The notes under the pieces are model-generated. The model was not told the DNA's origin and ran no database searches. It was given only the letters and a program-made list of their open reading frames with translations. Positions 3,582 through 48,081 of a DNA stretch of 48,081 nucleotides are shown in pieces. Position numbers and translations under genes: made by a program. The DNA is from Escherichia phage AN_ECEAS. The DNA lies in the sequence record PP944860.1; one strand, written 5' to 3'. The first letter of the stretch is position 1. Every line of letters starts with the position of its first letter.

Positions 3582-4526
3582 ATGGCTATTAAGTTTGACG
3601 CTGAACAAGCGAAAATCACTGCTCACCTAGAGCAGATGGGCGTAGATAAAGCTGACGCCGCTGGCATCTGGACCGTCAAGCAACTGACACAGACCCTGAA
3701 GCGCAACTACGAGCGTGAATATACCGACAACTCTGTTGTTAATATCTTCCCGATCAGTAACGAAATCCCTGCTTCTGCTAAATACTTCGAGTACCCAGAA
3801 TTCGATGGCGTTTCAATCGCTCAGATTATCGCAGACTACTCCGATGACCTGCCGCTTGTTGACGCGTTCATGACTGAGAAACAAGGTAAAGTGTTCCGCT
3901 TCGGTAACGCATTCCTGATCTCCATCGATGAAATCGCAGCTGGTGCAGCAACTGGTCAATCTCTGTCTGCTCGTAAACAGGCTCTGGCTTTTGAAGCTCA
4001 CGACAACCTGCTTGACAAACTGGTATGGTTTGGCTCTGCTCCGCACGGTATTAACAGCGTATTTAATACCCCCAACGCAAGCCGCGTAACCCCGAACGCA
4101 TGGGTTGATGCCGCTGCTGCTGTTAACGATATCACTCGAATGATTGATGCTATCGAAACTAACACGCAGGGTATGCATACTGCTACTGATATCATTCTGC
4201 CAGCCTCCGCTCGCCGCTTGATGCAGCAACTGGTTCCTGGTACTACGATTAGCTATGCTCAGCTGTTCGCAACTAACAATACCAGCGTAAATATTCGCTA
4301 TTTGCAGTTCCTGGACGATATTGATGGCGCTGGCACTAAAGCAGCTCTGGCGTTTGAAAAAGACCCGCTGAACATGAGTATTGAAATTCCTGAGGCAACC
4401 CACGTATTGCCGGGTCAGCCGAAAGATTTGCATTTCAAATACCCTGTTACTTCCAAGTCTACAGGTCTGGTTGTTTACCGACCTCTGACTCTTGCTATCA
4501 TGTCTGGCATCGAAATTACCGCATAA
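3582..4526 (+). CDS. putative major capsid protein
   Basis: 314 aa; strong sigma70-like promoter upstream, RBS AAGGAAG, strong terminator directly downstream; position in head module. Confidence 0.5.
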   Translation: MAIKFDAEQAKITAHLEQMGVDKADAAGIWTVKQLTQTLKRNYEREYTDNSVVNIFPISNEIPASAKYFEYPEFDGVSIAQIIADYSDDLPLVDAFMTEKQGKVFRFGNAFLISIDEIAAGAATGQSLSARKQALAFEAHDNLLDKLVWFGSAPHGINSVFNTPNASRVTPNAWVDAAAAVNDITRMIDAIETNTQGMHTATDIILPASARRLMQQLVPGTTISYAQLFATNNTSVNIRYLQFLDDIDGAGTKAALAFEKDPLNMSIEIPEATHVLPGQPKDLHFKYPVTSKSTGLVVYRPLTLAIMSGIEITA

Positions 4527-25441: not shown

Positions 25442-25915
25442 TTACTCTTTAGCTTTTCGTGCTGCTTCGTTAGCGGCCTTAATCTTGCGCCATGATCGAC
25501 ACTCTGGCTTGGTGGCTAGCTCTGCTTCAGTAACTACGCGAAGCATATGACGCTTCTTACATCGAAGTGTTAGCGGCTTACCGTTTCCGTCGAATTGCAG
25601 GTCTGGTCGGCAGAACGTAGCTCGAAATCCTTCCTTATTTCTCTTATACGCATTGTGAGCTTTCTGCGCTCCTCGAGCCGAAATCATCCCGCGATCAAAC
25701 CATTGCTCTACAGTCTGGTGAGATACGTTTAACTGCTTTGCGATGTTCGCCTTTGTTCCATAGAAATCAAGAACCATCTCCAGGCGAGCACGTAGCCCAG
25801 CCTTTACCTCATCTTTCAATACGTAGTAGCCTGACGGTCGTTTGCGTTGCTTCTTGTCTTGTGTGCGTACCGTTCCGTTATTGCCGTTAATAGTTCGTTT
25901 GTCAATTTCACACAT
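25442..25915 (-). CDS. HTH DNA-binding protein (candidate transcription regulator)
   Basis: Basic protein with HTH-like segment IAKQLNVSHQTVEQWF; its RBS region abuts dyad motif 25928-25946. Confidence 0.4.
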   Translation of the reverse strand: MCEIDKRTINGNNGTVRTQDKKQRKRPSGYYVLKDEVKAGLRARLEMVLDFYGTKANIAKQLNVSHQTVEQWFDRGMISARGAQKAHNAYKRNKEGFRATFCRPDLQFDGNGKPLTLRCKKRHMLRVVTEAELATKPECRSWRKIKAANEAARKAKE

Positions 25916-25927
25916 CTCATTACCTCA

Positions 25928-25946
25928 ATAGCACTTTTTGTTAAAC
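25928..25946 (+). promoter_or_regulatory. dyad-motif promoter element ATAGCACTTTTTGTTAAAC
   Basis: Upstream of helicase gene; TATTAT-like hexamer ~20 bp downstream; 12 bp from start of divergent HTH gene. Confidence 0.55.
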
Positions 25947-26011
25947 AATAGGTTCGATAATTGATATTATACAGCAATGCAACGAACTAACAAACTGTCA
26001 GGATACTTAAA

Positions 26012-29000
26012 ATGCTTCCAGTAGAGCGCTTAGTGGCAAACTTTGATCAAGAGAAAATCAAACAGATTCAGAAAGATTACCAGTTTGGAGACATAACTCC
26101 TTACGAATTCCAGTGTGTAACATTTGACGCAATTGGTAAGGCTATTGGTAAGTACGAGGCTCCATTCATCGCAGACCTGTCTGTATCTGCTGGTAAAACA
26201 ATAATTCTTGCCATGATTGGGAAAAGAATGGAGCAACTTGGACTTCCTTATATGGTACTGTCTCGCCAGTCAGAGATTATCAGCCAGAACGCAGAGGAAC
26301 TCCGTAACTTCGGTATCCGTAATAGCGTCTATTGCGCTGGACTTAACGTTAAATCAGTTTACTACCCAACCATAGTGGCTAGTGAGGGTACAGCTGCCAA
26401 TGGCCTGTTTAAGGGGCTTGGTGACTATGTTCCTGCTGTTATCGCGATAGATGAGTGCTTAACTGGAGACACGATGATAACCACCGATTCAGGGATGATG
26501 AGGATTGATAGCGAAGACCTTATCAATCATAAAATAAAATGCATAAACGAAAGCACTGGTGATTACTTCTATCATAAGCCAAAAAGAGTTTTTACTAATG
26601 GTGTAAGACATGTATCATCAATTAAATTAGAAAGCGGAGAGGAAATAAAATGCACGAGTACACACAAACTTTATTCGAACGGCTGCTGGGTAGGAGCGGG
26701 AAAACTTCGTATTGGGATGAATCTGTCGCTAGACGGCTCGCAGGACAAATTTACGAAAAAGCTCCTGCGTGCAAGTGTGGCTGTGGTGAAAAAGTTATGC
26801 CGCATTCAAGCAAGGGGTTAGGCGTACTTCTTAAGAACCCTTTCGATTTCTATTTGGATTACAGAACGGGGCATCATAATTCAACCGTCAACCCATCAAT
26901 GGAGGTTGATGACTTTTTACATCAAAACATTCTTGCGGCAATGGCTGGTGATGGTTGCTTGATTAAAAATACAGAAAAAGGAACGCATAGGCTATCTTGG
27001 AATATGGGAAATAAGGAGCACGCACTAAGCAAGGTTGAAAGGTTTGCAAAACTAAACCCTAGATACAGGGAGAAGAAAAACCCTGGATTTGGCGACAACT
27101 GGTTTTGCGTATCAACATCATGTACGAAAGTTCTGGATTCATATGCTGATAAGTACGGAAATTCTAAGGATGGTTACGATATTGGAAAGATATGCAGAGA
27201 GCTTGATCCAGTTGGTTGGGCTGCTTACTTTGGTGATGATGGTCATTGCACTGTAAGCTCAGGGAAGAGGGTTGTAGAAATCCACACCGAATCATTTAGC
27301 AGGCGTGAAGTTCAATCAGTAGTTGATGCGCTAATAGCATTTATTGCTAATGACGGAGTTAATGTTAGAAGCTATATTGGCGGCAAGAAAAAGAGAGAGC
27401 TTTACTCAGTATCAATAACAACGAGGTCGGCACAAGATGAGTTTTTTAAGAGAATTAGTAAGCACATGGAAAATGGCGTGGAATACAAAATCAAGCAAAA
27501 TTAAAGACATCTCACCCATTGGCAAGGAACTTGTTTGGGATATAGAGATGCCTGAGCACCATAATTTCATTGCTGACGGGGTCGTGGCACATAATTGCCA
27601 CATGGTGGACCATATGGATATCGTAGAAGCTGAAGAGAATGAGGAAACATTCGAGCAGATGAGCACGAAGAAGGGTGAGATGGTCTTTAAGGATGGTGTG
27701 AATACCGGGCTTCTTGGCACTGGTCGCGCGCAATACACGTTAATCATTACCGAAATGAAGCGTCGATGCAAGGAGAAGTACGGTCGCGAACTTCGTATCT
27801 TTGGGTTAACTGGTAGCCCGTACCGTAACAACGACCACATTGTAGTTAGTAACCCAAATGTCCGTGGATTCTGGCGCAAAACTGTAATGCAAGTGCCAAC
27901 CAGCTACCTTGTTGACTTGGGGTTCGTTGTTCCTACTGTCTACGGTGAAGTTGGTGATTTGGGCTACGACCTTAGTGAGTTCACTCCTGATGGAAGTGAT
28001 GGGGTTAAGGACTTCAGCAAGAAAGAAATGGATGCGATGGCTGCAAAGATTCACGAAAACCAAACGATGACACAAAAGATAATGGGATTTGCTGCTAGGT
28101 TTATGGAAACAAGGAATGCTGCATTGGTAACTTGCGCTGGCAAACAGCATTGCGAGGAGGCGGCAGCCGCACTTCCAGAAGGTGTTACTTGGGCGATAGT
28201 TACCAACTCCACTGGTGATAAGAAGCGTAGAGAGATACTTGAGAAGGCAGCCAGCGGAGAATATAAGTTCATATTTCAGATTGGTTGCCTCACAACTGGC
28301 GTAAACTGCCCCCCGTGGGATACAAGCATTATCCTGAGGAAGGTTGGTAGCATTACTCTACTCATTCAGTTGCTTGGTCGTGGTATGCGTATCCTTAAGA
28401 AGAAGCACAAAGAAGCTGGAATGGTAAAAGATGACCATGTTGTTCTTGATTTTGCCGGGACGCTTGACGATATGGCAGAACTCTACTTCGACCCAATTAT
28501 AGAAGAGGTTCAGGACCAGAAGTTTAAGTCATCCAGGAAAGGGGGTGATGAACCAAGAATTTGCCCAGCATGTTCTTATGAGAATTCTCCTTTCGCACGG
28601 CGCTGTAATAATGTGATTGACGGTAAACGATGCGAGCATTTTTTTCAGTTCCGTCTTTGCGAAGATATTGAGGACCCGCAGACGAAAGTTATCGTTAAGA
28701 AAGGTTGCGGAGAGAAAAATGACGTTGCAGCAAAGAACTGCCGCTGCTGCGGAGAGATGCTGATAGACCCAAATGCAAAGCTATCTGGAAAAATGTATCG
28801 GAAAGGGGACTGGTTGAGAGTTTATGACTTCAAGATTGGGTTGACAAAAAACCAGTCAGGGATCGTTGCTTCATATGAGGTAATGGCTCATAGTGGAGAT
28901 AAGTTCCGAGCTTATGAAACATTCTTCCCGGAGTCAGACCATCGTGTTTGTTCTGTCAAATGGAAGGCGTTTTGCTCAACTCACATCGAGAACAGGACTG

Positions 29001-42738: not shown

Positions 42739-42930
42739 ATGAATGAAAACGACAATAACCACAAGCATCGCTACGTTTACGTGTTCACATCAAATATTAA
42801 CGATTTTGACATTAAAGCGCTAAACGACAAGTACCATGAGTCAACAAAACAAAGTCTATTTGTTGGTGAAAGCTGTTCATTCTACGAGTGCAAAGATTGT
42901 GGCAAGATGCTTATAACTGAGGAGTTTTGA
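42739..42930 (+). CDS. hypothetical protein with C-terminal Cys cluster
   Basis: ATG 42739 with RBS AGGAG. Confidence 0.4.
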   Translation: MNENDNNHKHRYVYVFTSNINDFDIKALNDKYHESTKQSLFVGESCSFYECKDCGKMLITEEF

Positions 42931-43127
42931 TGAATAAAATTATTAAGAAAGGCGATGCTATCAAGTGCACAAAGGCAGTATCGGATGACTTCATGGATGG
43001 ATGCGATTACCAGGTCGAAAAGGTATCGAAGACTGGCCACGTATTCTGCTACAGCGATAATGGCGAATTGGTGAGCATTGACTACCCGTATGACCAGAAT
43101 TATGGGAAATTCGAAAGAGTAAGTTGA
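42927..43127 (+). CDS. hypothetical protein
   Basis: ATGA-coupled ORF. Confidence 0.4.
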   Translation: MMNKIIKKGDAIKCTKAVSDDFMDGCDYQVEKVSKTGHVFCYSDNGELVSIDYPYDQNYGKFERVS

Positions 43128-43315
43128 CACATCTAACCCTGACTGGTACATTAACAACTGTAGACAGACGAGGCCACCAAGTGGCAACGGCGCACGGAGC
43201 GCAACACAAAGTCCATAGCTCACTAAGCAGCGTATATGGCGAAATCGGTCGAGAAACTCGACGCTGGAAGCGTAACCAGCAATCCTTCAATAGCGCAATC
43301 GCTACTCAAGGATTT

Positions 43316-43391
43316 GTTCTGCTGGCGTAACAGGATAACGCAAAGACCTCCTAAGTCTTAGTTACTGGTTCGAGTCCAGTGCGGAACACCA
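43316..43391 (+). tRNA. tRNA-Arg (anticodon CCU), CCA encoded
   Basis: Hand-folded cloverleaf: 7-bp acceptor stem, U8, D-arm GCGT/ACGC, anticodon stem AAGAC/GTCTT with loop CTCCTAA, T-arm ACTGG-TTCGAGT-CCAGT, discriminator A. Confidence 0.8.
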
Positions 43392-43422
43392 AATTAAGAA
43401 ACCAATAATCCTGGGGGATTAA

Positions 43423-43635
43423 ATGAAAAAAGTAACAATCATCGTAAAAGATATTGAAAGCGGCACTTCCCAAAAATTCAACGCAACACTTGACCGTGAA
43501 CATAAATGCTTAAAGGGTGTGATTGGCGGGGTTTCAGTTAGCGCGGATATTAAAGGTTATCTCGAGCTTGAAAGAGAAATTCAAAACTATAGCAATCAGA
43601 GCGGGAAGATAAAAAATGCAGCTCTGGGATGTTAA
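43423..43635 (+). CDS. hypothetical protein
   Basis: RBS GGGGGA. Confidence 0.4.
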   Translation: MKKVTIIVKDIESGTSQKFNATLDREHKCLKGVIGGVSVSADIKGYLELEREIQNYSNQSGKIKNAALGC

Positions 43636-43804
43636 GCTTTCAATCCGATTAATGGGTCGTAGTTGCAAAAGTTGCACTCAAGAATTTATCGCGTCGGTTA
43701 CTGCTAAGTCCTCAGAGGAAGCAGTAGCGAAAGTTAAGGTAATGTCTGGTGCCGACCCGGATTACCACAAATTCCTAGTAGCTTACGTTCGTGAGCGAAA
43801 GTAA
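43616..43804 (+). CDS. hypothetical protein
   Basis: Overlapping ORF; terminator downstream. Confidence 0.35.
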   Translation: MQLWDVKLSIRLMGRSCKSCTQEFIASVTAKSSEEAVAKVKVMSGADPDYHKFLVAYVRERK

Positions 43805-43857
43805 AAGAAGTTCTACTCTCTGTTTGTTTCATATCTCTCGTTGTTGTTCGATACTTC

Positions 43858-43881
43858 GCCCTCTTCTTGAGGGCTTTTTTT
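43858..43881 (+). terminator. rho-independent terminator before packaging module
   Basis: GCCCTC-TTCTT-GAGGGC stem-loop plus T7. Confidence 0.7.
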
Positions 43882-43892
43882 CGTTTGCTATA

Positions 43893-43901
43893 TGATATAA
43901 T
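43893..43901 (+). promoter_or_regulatory. extended -10 promoter candidate TGATATAAT upstream of the TerS gene
   Basis: Exact TGnTATAAT just downstream of terminator 43858-43881. Confidence 0.4.
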
Positions 43902-43928
43902 GCATCTCTAAACAAAGGAGGTAACAAA

Positions 43929-44453
43929 ATGAAAGACGAAAACTTCACCAGTCAGGCGCAGGAAAAGGTCAGCTCTGGCAACTTTAAAGCCATGTACAAT
44001 AAAAAGTACTCAGACATTACAACGCTAGCCAAAAACCGAAGCATGACACCCGAACAGCTATTTGAATTCGCCGTGAAATACTTCTCATGGGCTGAGGACC
44101 AGGCAATCAAGGCAATCGAGACAGCCAGCTTCCAGGGTGTGGTAAAAGAGAGCCTGGTGCACAAACCACGAGTCTTCACGCTAACCGGATTCTGCCTTTA
44201 CTGCGGCGTCACCCATAGCGCCATCGAGAAATGGAGGAAGTCGGCTGGTTACGATGAGGTGATGGCATTCATTGATTCCGTGATTCGCGAGCAAAAGTAC
44301 CAGTTAGCAGCGTCCGGCATCATTAACCCTGGCATGATTTCTAAAGAGCTCGGTATCGACAAGCCGCAGGAGATTAACATCACCAGCACATCTTCAGCCA
44401 ACGACGTCGATACGATGAAAGAGGCGCTCGAATCGGTTATTAGCAAGTTGTAG
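43929..44453 (+). CDS. putative terminase small subunit
   Basis: 174 aa, RBS AAGGAGG, immediately upstream of HNH and TerL. Confidence 0.5.
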   Translation: MKDENFTSQAQEKVSSGNFKAMYNKKYSDITTLAKNRSMTPEQLFEFAVKYFSWAEDQAIKAIETASFQGVVKESLVHKPRVFTLTGFCLYCGVTHSAIEKWRKSAGYDEVMAFIDSVIREQKYQLAASGIINPGMISKELGIDKPQEINITSTSSANDVDTMKEALESVISKL

Positions 44454-44520: not shown

Positions 44521-44997
44521 ATGGATTGGGGTGATTTCTTCTATCTTAGTGATGATTCCGTTTCTGGTATAAAGTGGAAGGTTAATAAGGGTCGGTCAAT
44601 GGCTGGTGACGACGCTTTAACATCTGTTGGTAATGGATATTACAAAGGCAGACTCAACCAGAAGACAACGTACGCCCACAGGGTCGTTTACTTTCTTAAC
44701 TATGGCGTAATCCCTGATGTTATAGATCATATGGATGGTAATGGGCTTAACAACTCAATAGAAAACCTAAGGGATGGCACCACAGCCAAGAATATGCAAA
44801 ACAAGCTATGTAAGGGTTACAGCTACAATAAGAGGGATGACGTTTATTATGCTCAGGTAACTACAAATGGGGTGACTAAACATGTAGGTTCTTTTGCAAG
44901 CAAGGAATTGGCTATTGCTGCTTACCTAAAGGAGAAGGAATTGCAGCATGATTTCTATAACAAAGAGAGGAAGATATGCTTGTTTGGGAAAGTATGA
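44521..44997 (+). CDS. HNH homing endonuclease (terminase-associated position)
   Basis: Motif VIDHMDGNGLNNSIENLR plus AP2-like C-terminus; RBS AAGGAGAA; overlaps TerL start. Confidence 0.65.
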   Translation: MDWGDFFYLSDDSVSGIKWKVNKGRSMAGDDALTSVGNGYYKGRLNQKTTYAHRVVYFLNYGVIPDVIDHMDGNGLNNSIENLRDGTTAKNMQNKLCKGYSYNKRDDVYYAQVTTNGVTKHVGSFASKELAIAAYLKEKELQHDFYNKERKICLFGKV

Positions 44998-47019: not shown

Positions 47020-48081
47020 ATGGTAAAAGCAGATTCATACGCCACGCAATTTCTTGGTGGCTCCAGTGATGGTAGCGAGATTTACGGGCACTTTGGCAAC
47101 ACGTATCTTACACCTCCTTTCGCTGATTCACTGTACGCATCAAACTCAATTGTACGCCGCATCGTCGACACCATACCGGAGACAGCAATCGCCGCAGGTT
47201 TCCATATCGATGGTATTGATAACGAAGGTGAATTCTGGTCCAGGTGGGATTACCTGAAGGTTAACGAGTCAATCTCTGACGCATGGTCATGGGCGAGGTT
47301 ATTTGGCGGCTCTGCAATTGTGGCTATCGTTAAGGACAATCGTGCGCTAACTAGCCCGGTACGTGAAGGCGCGGAACTTGAATCACTTCGCGTTTATGAG
47401 CGTAGCCAGGTAAGAGTTCAGACTAAGGAGGAAAACCCTCGCAATGTGCGATTCGGTAAGCCATTAACGTATCGCATCACGCCAGAAGGTGGCGCCATGT
47501 TTTATGATGTGCACTACTCGCGAGTTCACATTATTGATGGCGAGAAGATTCCTAGTTCATTGCGTCGCGGTAATGACGGGTGGGGTGCTAGCGTTCTGGT
47601 TCCTGACCTGCTTGAATCAATCAAGGATTATCAGACGTGTGAGAAACTGGCAACTCAGTTATTGCGCCGCAAGCAGCAGGCGGTGTGGAAGGCTAAAGGC
47701 CTTGCTGAACTGTGTGACGACGCGGAAGGTTTTGGTGCGGCGAGGTTGAGGCTTGCCCAGGTTGATGATAACTCTGGCGTTGGTCGCGCGATTGGTATCG
47801 ACGCTGAAGCTGAAGAGTACAGCGTTCTTAACTCGGATATTGGTGGGATTGATGGATTCCTCGATAAGAAGTTCGACAGAATTGTTGCTCTGAGCGGTAT
47901 CCATGAAATCATTCTCAAAGGTCGTAACGTTGGCGGGTTGTCATCAAGCCAGAATACAGCGCTAGAGACTTTCCACAAGCTAATCGACCGCAAGCGCAAT
48001 GAGGAGTTACTTCCAGTGCTTGGTTTCTTAATCCCATTCATCACAACCGAGCAGGAATGGTCAGTTGAGTTTAACCCTCTA
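47020..48081 (+). CDS. putative portal protein, N-terminal part (ORF open at window end, continues at 1..285)
   Basis: ATG 47020 with RBS GGAG; no stop before window end; position after terminase. Confidence 0.5.
   Translation, partial: MVKADSYATQFLGGSSDGSEIYGHFGNTYLTPPFADSLYASNSIVRRIVDTIPETAIAAGFHIDGIDNEGEFWSRWDYLKVNESISDAWSWARLFGGSAIVAIVKDNRALTSPVREGAELESLRVYERSQVRVQTKEENPRNVRFGKPLTYRITPEGGAMFYDVHYSRVHIIDGEKIPSSLRRGNDGWGASVLVPDLLESIKDYQTCEKLATQLLRRKQQAVWKAKGLAELCDDAEGFGAARLRLAQVDDNSGVGRAIGIDAEAEEYSVLNSDIGGIDGFLDKKFDRIVALSGIHEIILKGRNVGGLSSSQNTALETFHKLIDRKRNEELLPVLGFLIPFITTEQEWSVEFNPL
48007..48081. repeat. terminal direct repeat (identical to 1-75)
   Basis: Exact 75-bp identity of the two window ends. 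Confidence 0.95.

Follow-up and report, generated by a model that had tools for sequence, protein, structure and literature searches.

A phage-encoded tRNA-Arg(CCU) in Escherichia phage AN_ECEAS and the concentration of its cognate codon, AGG, in virion genes

Escherichia phage AN_ECEAS encodes a genuine tRNA-Arg that reads AGG, and AGG is a codon that this phage uses far more often than its host. Here, we analyzed the whole 48,081-base stretch of DNA (PP944860.1), referred to as the window, in which the 76-nt gene occupies positions 43316 to 43391 on the + strand. The gene has a conserved cloverleaf and the expected synthetase identity elements, and the codon use of the phage and its relatives follows its anticodon. 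We think it likely that the tRNA is functional and tops up the scarcest Arg decoder of the cell for phage translation. As a discovery the gene carries little weight: it is an ordinary finding, described from sister phages as early as 2012, and textbooks already explain phage tRNAs by codon compensation. What is new here is quantitative, namely, that AGG is the top Arg codon of the phage, that its excess is concentrated in virion genes and seen only in tRNA carriers, and that its use follows whether the anticodon is CCU or UCU.

Results

A single tRNA-Arg(CCU) gene with all canonical features

ARAGORN called one tRNA across the window, a tRNA-Arg with anticodon cct at 43316 to 43391 (+), coordinates exactly equal to those proposed for a tRNA-Arg(CCU) in the initial annotation, which had been made by reading the sequence. 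The Rfam tRNA model RF00005 matched 43316 to 43388 over its full length (model positions 1 to 71 of 71) with 58.9 bits, well above the gathering score of 29 (E = 2.7 × 10−10), with no non-canonical pairs flagged; it was the only Rfam family above threshold in the window. Both predictors thus upheld the call. The anticodon CCT (C34 C35 U36; 43350 to 43352, +; gene position 35 in ARAGORN, also located by structural parsing) lies within the loop CUCCUAA. The stems are 7, 4, 5, and 5 bp long and the T-loop is UUCGA; all 21 pairs are standard, U5-G68 being a wobble. The nucleotides conserved in tRNAs are present as well (U8, G18G19 in the D-loop, U33, and GGTTCGA in the T-arm), and CCA is encoded at 43389 to 43391, so that each feature listed earlier from a hand-folded structure (U8, the D-loop GG, U33, the T-loop TTC, and the encoded CCA) could be read in the sequence. 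The MFE fold of the gene alone, computed from the single sequence, is a cloverleaf. Its energy z-score is only −1.6, a modest value that is usual for tRNAs, and the tRNA call therefore rests on the covariance model and the comparative data described below.

The identity set of E. coli ArgRS comprises A20, C35, U36 or G36, and A73 or G73. A20, C35, U36, and A73 are all found in the phage tRNA, and G18G19A20, C35, and U36 are invariant among 14 phage homologs. On the strength of these identity elements, the phage tRNA is predicted to be chargeable by E. coli ArgRS.

The gene is widespread among relatives and often left unannotated

Over 24 kb, the window matched Escherichia phage ES (OR466728.1; Drexlerviridae, Braunvirinae) at 100% identity, in a rotated arrangement in which window position 1 corresponds to ES position 4361. 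By blastn, the 76-nt gene was matched in 120 phage records. About 38 of these, from several genera and many with an annotated tRNA-Arg, were 90 to 100% identical (including ES, IMM-001, JK06, Rogue1, AKS96, AHP24/AHS24/AHP42, C119, phiKP26, TR1-3, Sf12, Sd1, and phiEB49), and ∼79 further records were 80 to 90% identical. Identity reached 100% for ES and IMM-001 and 96 to 97% for Rogue1, JK06, and AKS96; it was 92 to 100% to the annotated tRNA-Arg genes of Rogue1, AKS96, TR1-3, Sf12, and phiEB49. A scan of IMG/VR with the conserved T-arm plus acceptor motif returned 11 contigs, none beyond the loci already included in this study.

For Rogue1 and JK06, the gene was described as "an arginyl-tRNA ... 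recognizing the rare codon AGG" (Kropinski et al. 2012; PMC3496638), and "1 arginyl-tRNA" was given for four further phages (Niu et al. 2014; PMC4070988). The tRNA is unannotated in the GenBank records of ES, Rtp, DTL, JK06, C119, and others, and according to one paper Rtp and DTL do not have it, contrary to the tRNA-Arg(UCU) gene that we see there. The locus is a mosaic hotspot of tRNA gain and loss: Sd1 has a tRNA-Trp, phiEB49 has a tRNA-Val, the viral contig locus L049 has a six-tRNA array, and T1 has no tRNA.

Every stem of the cloverleaf shows compensatory changes

Homologs were compared by a structure-aware parse of 14 phage tRNAs. MAFFT had placed the 3′ anticodon strands of the CCU and UCU genes out of register, and this parse was used instead, together with a covariance-model alignment. 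Compensatory double changes were observed in all four stems among the 14 homologs: U2-A71 alternates with C2-G71 in the acceptor stem, G12-C23 with U12-A23 in the D stem, A27-U43 (window and TR3) with G27-C43 (Rogue1 group) in the anticodon stem, and A49-U65 with G49-C65 in the T stem, where Rogue1 has a G-U intermediate. The covariance model was built from seven CCU genes and used to align 23 tRNAs, drawn from the fetched loci and the host. In this alignment, 99.1% of cells were standard pairs, and a double-sided change was seen in 18 of the 21 pairs. None of 500 shuffles reached the observed value for any of five covariation measures, and sliding the partners by 1 to 3 columns reduced pairing to 25 to 48%. 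Fitting the alignment to the model biases it toward the structure; the margin, however, is very large. At the level of sequence comparison, the compensatory changes in four stems, taken with the invariant identity nucleotides, show that a working cloverleaf is under purifying selection.

The phage tRNA shares its anticodon loop, but not its stems, with host argW

The host counterpart of the phage tRNA is argW, the tRNA-Arg(CCU) of E. coli K-12. The two genes have the same anticodon, a 4-nt variable loop, A20, A73, and CCA, and they agree fully in the 7-nt anticodon loop CUCCUAA and at G39. Overall identity is nevertheless only ∼63%: all four stems differ, and the longest common run, of ∼9 to 10 nt, lies in the anticodon loop. 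A blastn search of 5,426 E. coli genomes with the phage gene found nothing. Given the low identity to argW and the lack of a match in these genomes, recent capture from the host and carriage by a prophage were both ruled out.

A promoter candidate, a structured leader, and small open reading frames surround the gene

The tRNA gene ends a block of small mosaic + strand open reading frames (ORFs), consistent with its original description as part of an accessory region, and lies ∼540 nt (537 nt) upstream of the small terminase gene. A sigma-70-like promoter candidate at 43124 to 43152 (+) consists of TTGACA, a 17-nt spacer, and TACATT with a TG extension (10 of 12 consensus matches). In a consensus scan, promoter-like sites in the region were no more numerous than in shuffles; a −35/−10 pair, however, aligns with it in each of TR3, Rogue1, phiKP26, Sd1, Sf12, and phiEB49. 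We infer that 43124 to 43152 functions as a promoter.

Between this candidate and the tRNA lies a non-coding structured leader of ∼160 nt (43153 to 43315, +). Its MFE of −49.2 kcal/mol compares with −37.5 ± 3.9 kcal/mol for shuffles (z = −3.0; 0 of 200 shuffles as good). No Rfam family was detected in the leader, a scan of 42900 to 43950 at E ≤ 10 giving chance-level matches only. The leader hairpins are kept via compensatory changes in the window/TR3 group and in the Rogue1 group. We also searched the 190-nt upstream stretch for a decayed second tRNA using the pseudogene mode of ARAGORN, which returned nothing credible; the additional ARAGORN calls made at a threshold of 50% lie on the other strand and overlap the genuine tRNA gene.

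A 68-amino-acid (aa) ORF with a TTG start (43124 to 43330, +) extends through the leader into the 5′ end of the tRNA. It is unannotated in ES and TR3. The equivalent sequence of TR3 and Rogue1 contains stops in all three frames, and the TTG start falls inside the −35 box TTGACA; we therefore consider this ORF spurious, as the initial annotation had suspected. Both this ORF and a second one at 43236 to 43361 were ruled out as genes, their frames not being conserved in relatives.

Downstream, a small ORF of 70 aa (43423 to 43635, +) begins 31 nt past the tRNA and is annotated in ES, with no Pfam family found for its product. In a pattern scan, nothing resembling a terminator separated the tRNA from this ORF, and the two are probably co-transcribed. 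The first terminator-like site after the tRNA is a hairpin followed by a T-run at 43858 to 43884 (+), just before TerS; a terminator is annotated in the corresponding position of T1, also immediately ahead of TerS. The small terminase subunit itself (43929 to 44453, +; PF16677 GP3_package, E = 6 × 10−12; syntenic with TR3, Rogue1, and T1) opens the AGG-rich packaging/virion block and is followed by genes for an HNH endonuclease and the large terminase.

AGG is the commonest Arg codon of the phage and is concentrated in virion genes

In the 73 annotated coding sequences (CDS) of ES, AGG accounts for 187 of 593 Arg codons (31.5%) and for 187 of 13,580 codons overall (13.8 per 1,000). It is the commonest of the six Arg codons, ahead of CGC (128), CGT (111), CGA (77), AGA (76), and CGG (14). 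To compare phage and host, a single ORF-calling procedure was applied to the window and to a 50-kb sample of E. coli K-12; AGG occurred at 15.1 per 1,000 codons in the window versus 1.2 per 1,000 (2.1% of Arg) in K-12. The codon count envisaged at the outset thus found AGG about tenfold commoner in the phage than in the host. This bears out the claim that AGG is rare in the host (1.2 per 1,000 in K-12 versus 13.8 to 15.1 in the phage), and the excess supports codon supply, the first of the two roles that had been suggested for the tRNA.

The excess is unevenly distributed within the genome. AGG makes up 42% of Arg codons in packaging/virion genes (18.0 per 1,000 codons), compared to 21% in replication/recombination/lysis genes (9.6 per 1,000) and 11% in the small ORFs that precede the tRNA (4.7 per 1,000; Fisher P ≈ 10−6 for virion genes versus either other class). 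The tape measure gene uses AGG for 25 of its 39 Arg codons (64%), compared to 31 of 62 in Rogue1 and 6 of 38 in T1; two large tail-fiber-like genes contain 22 AGG codons each, and tandem AGG-AGG pairs occur three times in the phage. The enrichment of AGG in virion genes was also seen with ORF-based gene calling in ES (39% versus 14 to 19%; P = 3 × 10−9) and in Rogue1 (31% versus 14 to 17%; P = 5 × 10−8). In T1, which lacks the tRNA, this enrichment was absent (12% versus 6 to 11%; P = 0.41).

The gene for the major capsid protein (PF09950; window positions 3582 to 4526) departs from this pattern, with neither AGG nor AGA among its 10 Arg codons. The T1 major capsid gene is likewise without AGG or AGA, and that of Rogue1 is nearly so. 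Because the protein made most abundantly has none of its 10 Arg codons as AGG, this codon probably remains sub-optimal despite the phage tRNA.

AGG use tracks the anticodon across relatives

We extended the comparison to 51 TerL-related loci from viral contigs plus T1 and Rogue1. Median AGG use was 13.5 per 1,000 codons in carriers of a tRNA-Arg(CCU) (n = 9; range, 10.6 to 15.1), 7.5 in carriers of a tRNA-Arg(UCU) at the same locus (n = 6; range, 5.6 to 9.8), and 4.2 in loci with no tRNA found (n = 39; range, 2.2 to 11.1). The UCU carriers had the highest AGA use among the groups (8.7 per 1,000). AGG use differed between CCU carriers and loci with no tRNA found (Mann-Whitney P = 4 × 10−6) and between CCU and UCU carriers (P = 0.002), although the CCU carriers come mostly from one clade, so that the groups are not phylogenetically independent and these P values overstate independence. 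One independent lineage is represented by L049, whose TerL is 56% identical and whose six-tRNA array includes a different tRNA-Arg(CCU); its AGG use is 13.5 per 1,000. The median G+C content is ∼0.46 in all three groups, and at this equal G+C content the ratio AGG/(AGG+AGA) is 0.65 in CCU carriers versus 0.45 where no tRNA was found. In TerL alone, the median number of AGG codons, out of ∼30 Arg codons, is 10 in CCU carriers, 6.5 in UCU carriers, and 2 in loci with no tRNA found. Some loci without a tRNA in the stretch examined, these being partial genomes, are still fairly AGG rich (L020, 9.1; L046, 8.2; L051/L052, 9.5 to 11.1 per 1,000). L020 was considered as a possible tRNA-less sibling of L049, which would have made it a counterexample; the two are only ∼70% identical at the nucleotide level. 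Across these relatives, AGG use tracks whether the anticodon is CCU or UCU.

Discussion

Codon supply as the favored explanation

The cellular tRNA-Arg(CCU) is among the least abundant tRNAs of E. coli. Consecutive AGG codons cause E. coli ribosomes to stall and to shift frame, and plasmids carrying argU/argW are used in heterologous expression for this reason. Supply of this decoder by the phage could proceed as follows. Host RNA polymerase would most likely transcribe from the sigma-70-type promoter ∼165 nt upstream of the tRNA, producing a transcript that would comprise the structured leader, the tRNA, and the downstream small ORFs. Host enzymes would then excise the tRNA, its CCA being already encoded, and host ArgRS would charge it via A20, C35, U36, and A73. 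The charged tRNA would read AGG, which is concentrated in the packaging, tail, and tail-fiber genes just downstream, and the larger supply of AGG decoder would be expected to benefit these AGG-rich virion genes and thereby phage fitness. The correlation between tRNA and codon gives no direction, and the tRNA may have let AGG drift upward in the phage instead of having been acquired to satisfy an existing demand.

An extension of this idea, which we regard as speculative and unlikely, is that a translational gate is formed jointly by the tRNA and the AGG-rich virion genes (or that the tRNA guards against a tRNA-Arg nuclease still to be discovered). With such a gate, the upstream small ORFs (11% AGG) would be translatable with host tRNAs alone, whereas the packaging, tail, and tail-fiber genes (42%; tape measure, 64%) would be translated efficiently only after the phage tRNA has accumulated; the conserved structured leader could then be a co-processed small RNA of the same device. 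If true, the arrangement would control the timing or stoichiometry of virion protein synthesis or make late translation independent of the scarce argW/argU pool.

Alternatives to codon supply

Counter-defense, which would be compatible with codon supply, is an alternative that we judge to be rather improbable. Here, the phage copy would replace or outlast a host tRNA-Arg cleaved or depleted by an anticodon nuclease. Phage tRNAs are known to rescue infection from tRNA-cleaving defenses (PMC11464382, PMC11555353; OLD preprint), colicin D, which cuts tRNA-Arg, is among the E. coli tRNases considered in the anticodon-loop evasion hypothesis (PMC10264068), and activated retron Eco2 cleaves host tRNA-Arg among several tRNAs (PMC12916289). 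The four stems that differ from argW could also matter to a nuclease that reads stems. However, the evasion signature, mutations in the anticodon loop, is absent, loop and G39 being the same as in argW. A literature search found no anti-phage system specific for tRNA-Arg(CCU)/argW, and Eco2 gives no defense against Drexlerviridae (PMC12916289). Moreover, counter-defense on its own would not predict that AGG is in tenfold excess, that it is concentrated in virion genes, or that it follows the anticodon across relatives. The second role raised in the initial annotation, replacement of a host tRNA targeted by a defense system, therefore found no support here, given an anticodon loop identical to that of argW.

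We consider it highly unlikely that the gene is a neutral passenger that horizontal transfer left behind in a mosaic region and that mutational bias alone raised AGG. The region is indeed mosaic and a hotspot of tRNA gain and loss, and the phage has a lower G+C content than the host (44% versus 52%), an A+T richness that favors AGR over CGN codons. Such a bias would favor AGA, yet AGG/(AGG+AGA) is higher in CCU carriers. The compensatory changes in four stems and the invariant identity nucleotides amount to purifying selection, and the gene is kept at 92 to 100% identity in ∼38 records from several genera.

That the gene is the remnant of an attP matching host argW can be dismissed as vanishingly improbable: CPS-53 in K-12 and Stx2 prophages (PMC7946995) are integrated at argW, but the phage gene is full length, shares no run longer than ∼9 to 10 nt with argW, and belongs to the virulent Drexlerviridae, with an integrase annotated in none of ES, T1, and Rogue1, and its low identity to argW (∼63%) together with its absence by blastn from the 5,426 E. 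coli genomes effectively refutes the idea. There is equally little chance that the locus codes for protein instead of, or besides, the tRNA, as the open frames of 68 and 41 aa and the small hypothetical proteins annotated nearby in IMM-001 and Rogue1 might suggest, since TR3 and Rogue1 have three-frame stops over the equivalent stretch, indels among relatives ignore the reading frame, and substitutions preserve RNA hairpins instead.

Significance

The omission of the tRNA from database records (ES, Rtp, DTL, JK06, C119, and others) is a practical point for annotation. Beyond this, the phage offers an unusually clean minimal system in which to ask what purpose phage tRNAs serve: a single tRNA is paired with a single codon, the tenfold excess of this codon is largely confined to virion genes, and natural comparators carry a CCU tRNA, a UCU tRNA, or no tRNA.

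Comparison with known phage tRNAs

The closest known genes are the tRNA-Arg(CCU) genes of the Rogunavirus/Braunvirinae phages (vB_EcoS_Rogue1, JK06, AHP24/AHS24/AHP42/AKS96, TR1-3, Sf12, and phiEB49). These represent the same gene with the same anticodon and promoter-like element, at the same site upstream of the small terminase (syntenic with TR3 and Rogue1), and they differ from the copy described here by two to six substitutions, including several compensatory ones. The Rtp-like phages (Rtp, DTL, CEB_EC3a, IME253, and MSK) are, like AN_ECEAS, virulent T1-like phages with a single tRNA for a rare Arg codon at the same locus, upstream of TerS/TerL, and their T-arm and acceptor stem are near-identical to those of the CCU gene. 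Their anticodon, in contrast, is UCU, which reads AGA plus AGG by wobble; most copies have an extra D-arm nucleotide (77 to 78 nt versus 76 nt here), and AGG use is lower and AGA use higher than in CCU carriers. The UCU variants are chimeric, with a D-arm and anticodon arm identical to host argU at 36 of 37 positions, unlike the CCU gene.

Phage tRNAs that counter defense systems, such as T5 tRNA-Lys against PARIS, tRNA-Tyr against Retron-Eco7, and tRNA-Thr against OLD, are, as here, phage copies of a host tRNA species. They differ in that the nuclease is known and the anticodon loop or stem is typically altered, whereas the loop of the present tRNA is that of the host.

Codon-compensating tRNAs are known from other phages. 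The idea is that of Bailly-Bechet et al. 2007 (as summarized in PMC11555353 and PMC7946995), and Stx2 phages carry two tRNA-Arg genes (PMC7946995). For the sets of T4, T5, and the Stx phages, the last being tRNA-Arg/tRNA-Met or ileZ-argN-argO, the cognate codons are common in the phage and rare in the host, as is the case for AGG here. Compared to the T4, T5, and Stx sets, the phage described here has a single tRNA that serves one codon, and that codon is now its top Arg codon.

Gain, loss, and recombination at the tRNA site

The tRNA site upstream of the terminase genes is a hotspot for tRNA gain and loss. In Sd1 (L013:8633-8706), a tRNA-Trp lies 5 nt upstream of the tRNA-Arg; in phiEB49 (L016:3275-3351), a tRNA-Val(AAC) lies 1 nt downstream of it; and another related locus (L049:8325-8972) carries an array of six tRNAs (Arg, Ser, Ser, Asn, Trp, and Met). 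Phage T1 carries no tRNA at the equivalent site. In the window, an abrupt mosaic boundary lies at ∼43160, directly 3′ of the promoter-like site (43124-43152); from this point on, the sequence resembles TR3, Rao1, and CY1. Relative to TR3, the window also has an additional 70-aa ORF (43423-43635), located between the tRNA and the ORF annotated DUF3667-like in TR3. Together, the abrupt boundary and the extra ORF point to a tRNA located at a recombination joint.

Farther downstream, an HNH endonuclease ORF (44521-44997, + strand; PF13392) separates the small from the large terminase gene, its 3′ end overlapping the start of TerL (44976) by 22 nt. This ORF, present in TR3 and Rao1 and absent from Rogue1 and T1, has the appearance of an inserted mobile homing endonuclease.

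A structured leader precedes the tRNA

The noncoding leader that runs from the promoter-like site to the tRNA (43153-43315, + strand) is predicted to fold more stably than expected (z = −3.0), with 0 of 200 shuffled sequences folding equally well. Its hairpins are preserved by compensatory changes across two phage groups, as illustrated by GCCAC-CAA-GUGGC in the window versus CUAGC-CAA-GCUAG in TR3. A search of the leader against Rfam returned no family match. One possibility is that the leader serves as a processing signal; another is that it is a small stable RNA coprocessed with the tRNA.

AGG usage in the capsid gene and in possible exceptions

In a genome whose most frequent Arg codon is AGG, the major capsid protein gene (3582-4526, + strand; Pfam PF09950) encodes its 10 Arg residues without using AGG or AGA. 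The gene with the highest expression retains host-preferred CGN codons. Four relatives (L020 [IMGVR_UViG_3300048919_000084], L046, L051, and L052) have fairly high AGG usage (8 to 11 per 1,000 codons) and no tRNA in the fetched stretch, which is part of each genome. A tRNA may lie outside that stretch, and these relatives are candidate exceptions to the association of AGG use with the tRNA.

Window ends and the phage ES record

Bases 1-75 of the window recur exactly at its end (48007-48081). This repeat is most likely an overlap from circularized assembly of a circularly permuted genome rather than a biological repeat. The record of the near-identical phage ES (OR466728.1) has ∼310 additional bases at its 3′ end compared with the window, and many of its product names look misassigned; for example, "terminase small subunit" labels 25730-26167, while the Pfam GP3_package match is to the ORF at 283-807, and "endolysin," "u-spanin," and "capsid maturation protease" label early-region ORFs of 45 to 80 aa.

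A tRNA-Arg(UCU) variant in Rtp-like phages

In six Rtp-like relatives, the equivalent locus is occupied by a tRNA-Arg(UCU) (L007:8764-8841, L008:2451-2528, L009:4662-4739, L010 [DTL]:9079-9156, L011 [Rtp, NC_007603]:4893-4969, and L040:7289-7366). It agrees with the phage CCU gene in the T-arm and acceptor stem, while positions 8 to 43, comprising the D-arm and anticodon arm, are identical to host argU at 36 of 37 nucleotides; most copies (78 nt) are lengthened by one nucleotide, located in either the 3′ D-stem or the D-loop. The gene therefore looks chimeric, and its two-part resemblance suggests that gene conversion or a half-swap involving the host gave rise to it. Whereas the gene has been said to be missing from Rtp and DTL (PMC8421802), both ARAGORN and the covariance model found tRNA-Arg(UCU) in these two phages, unannotated in their sequence records.
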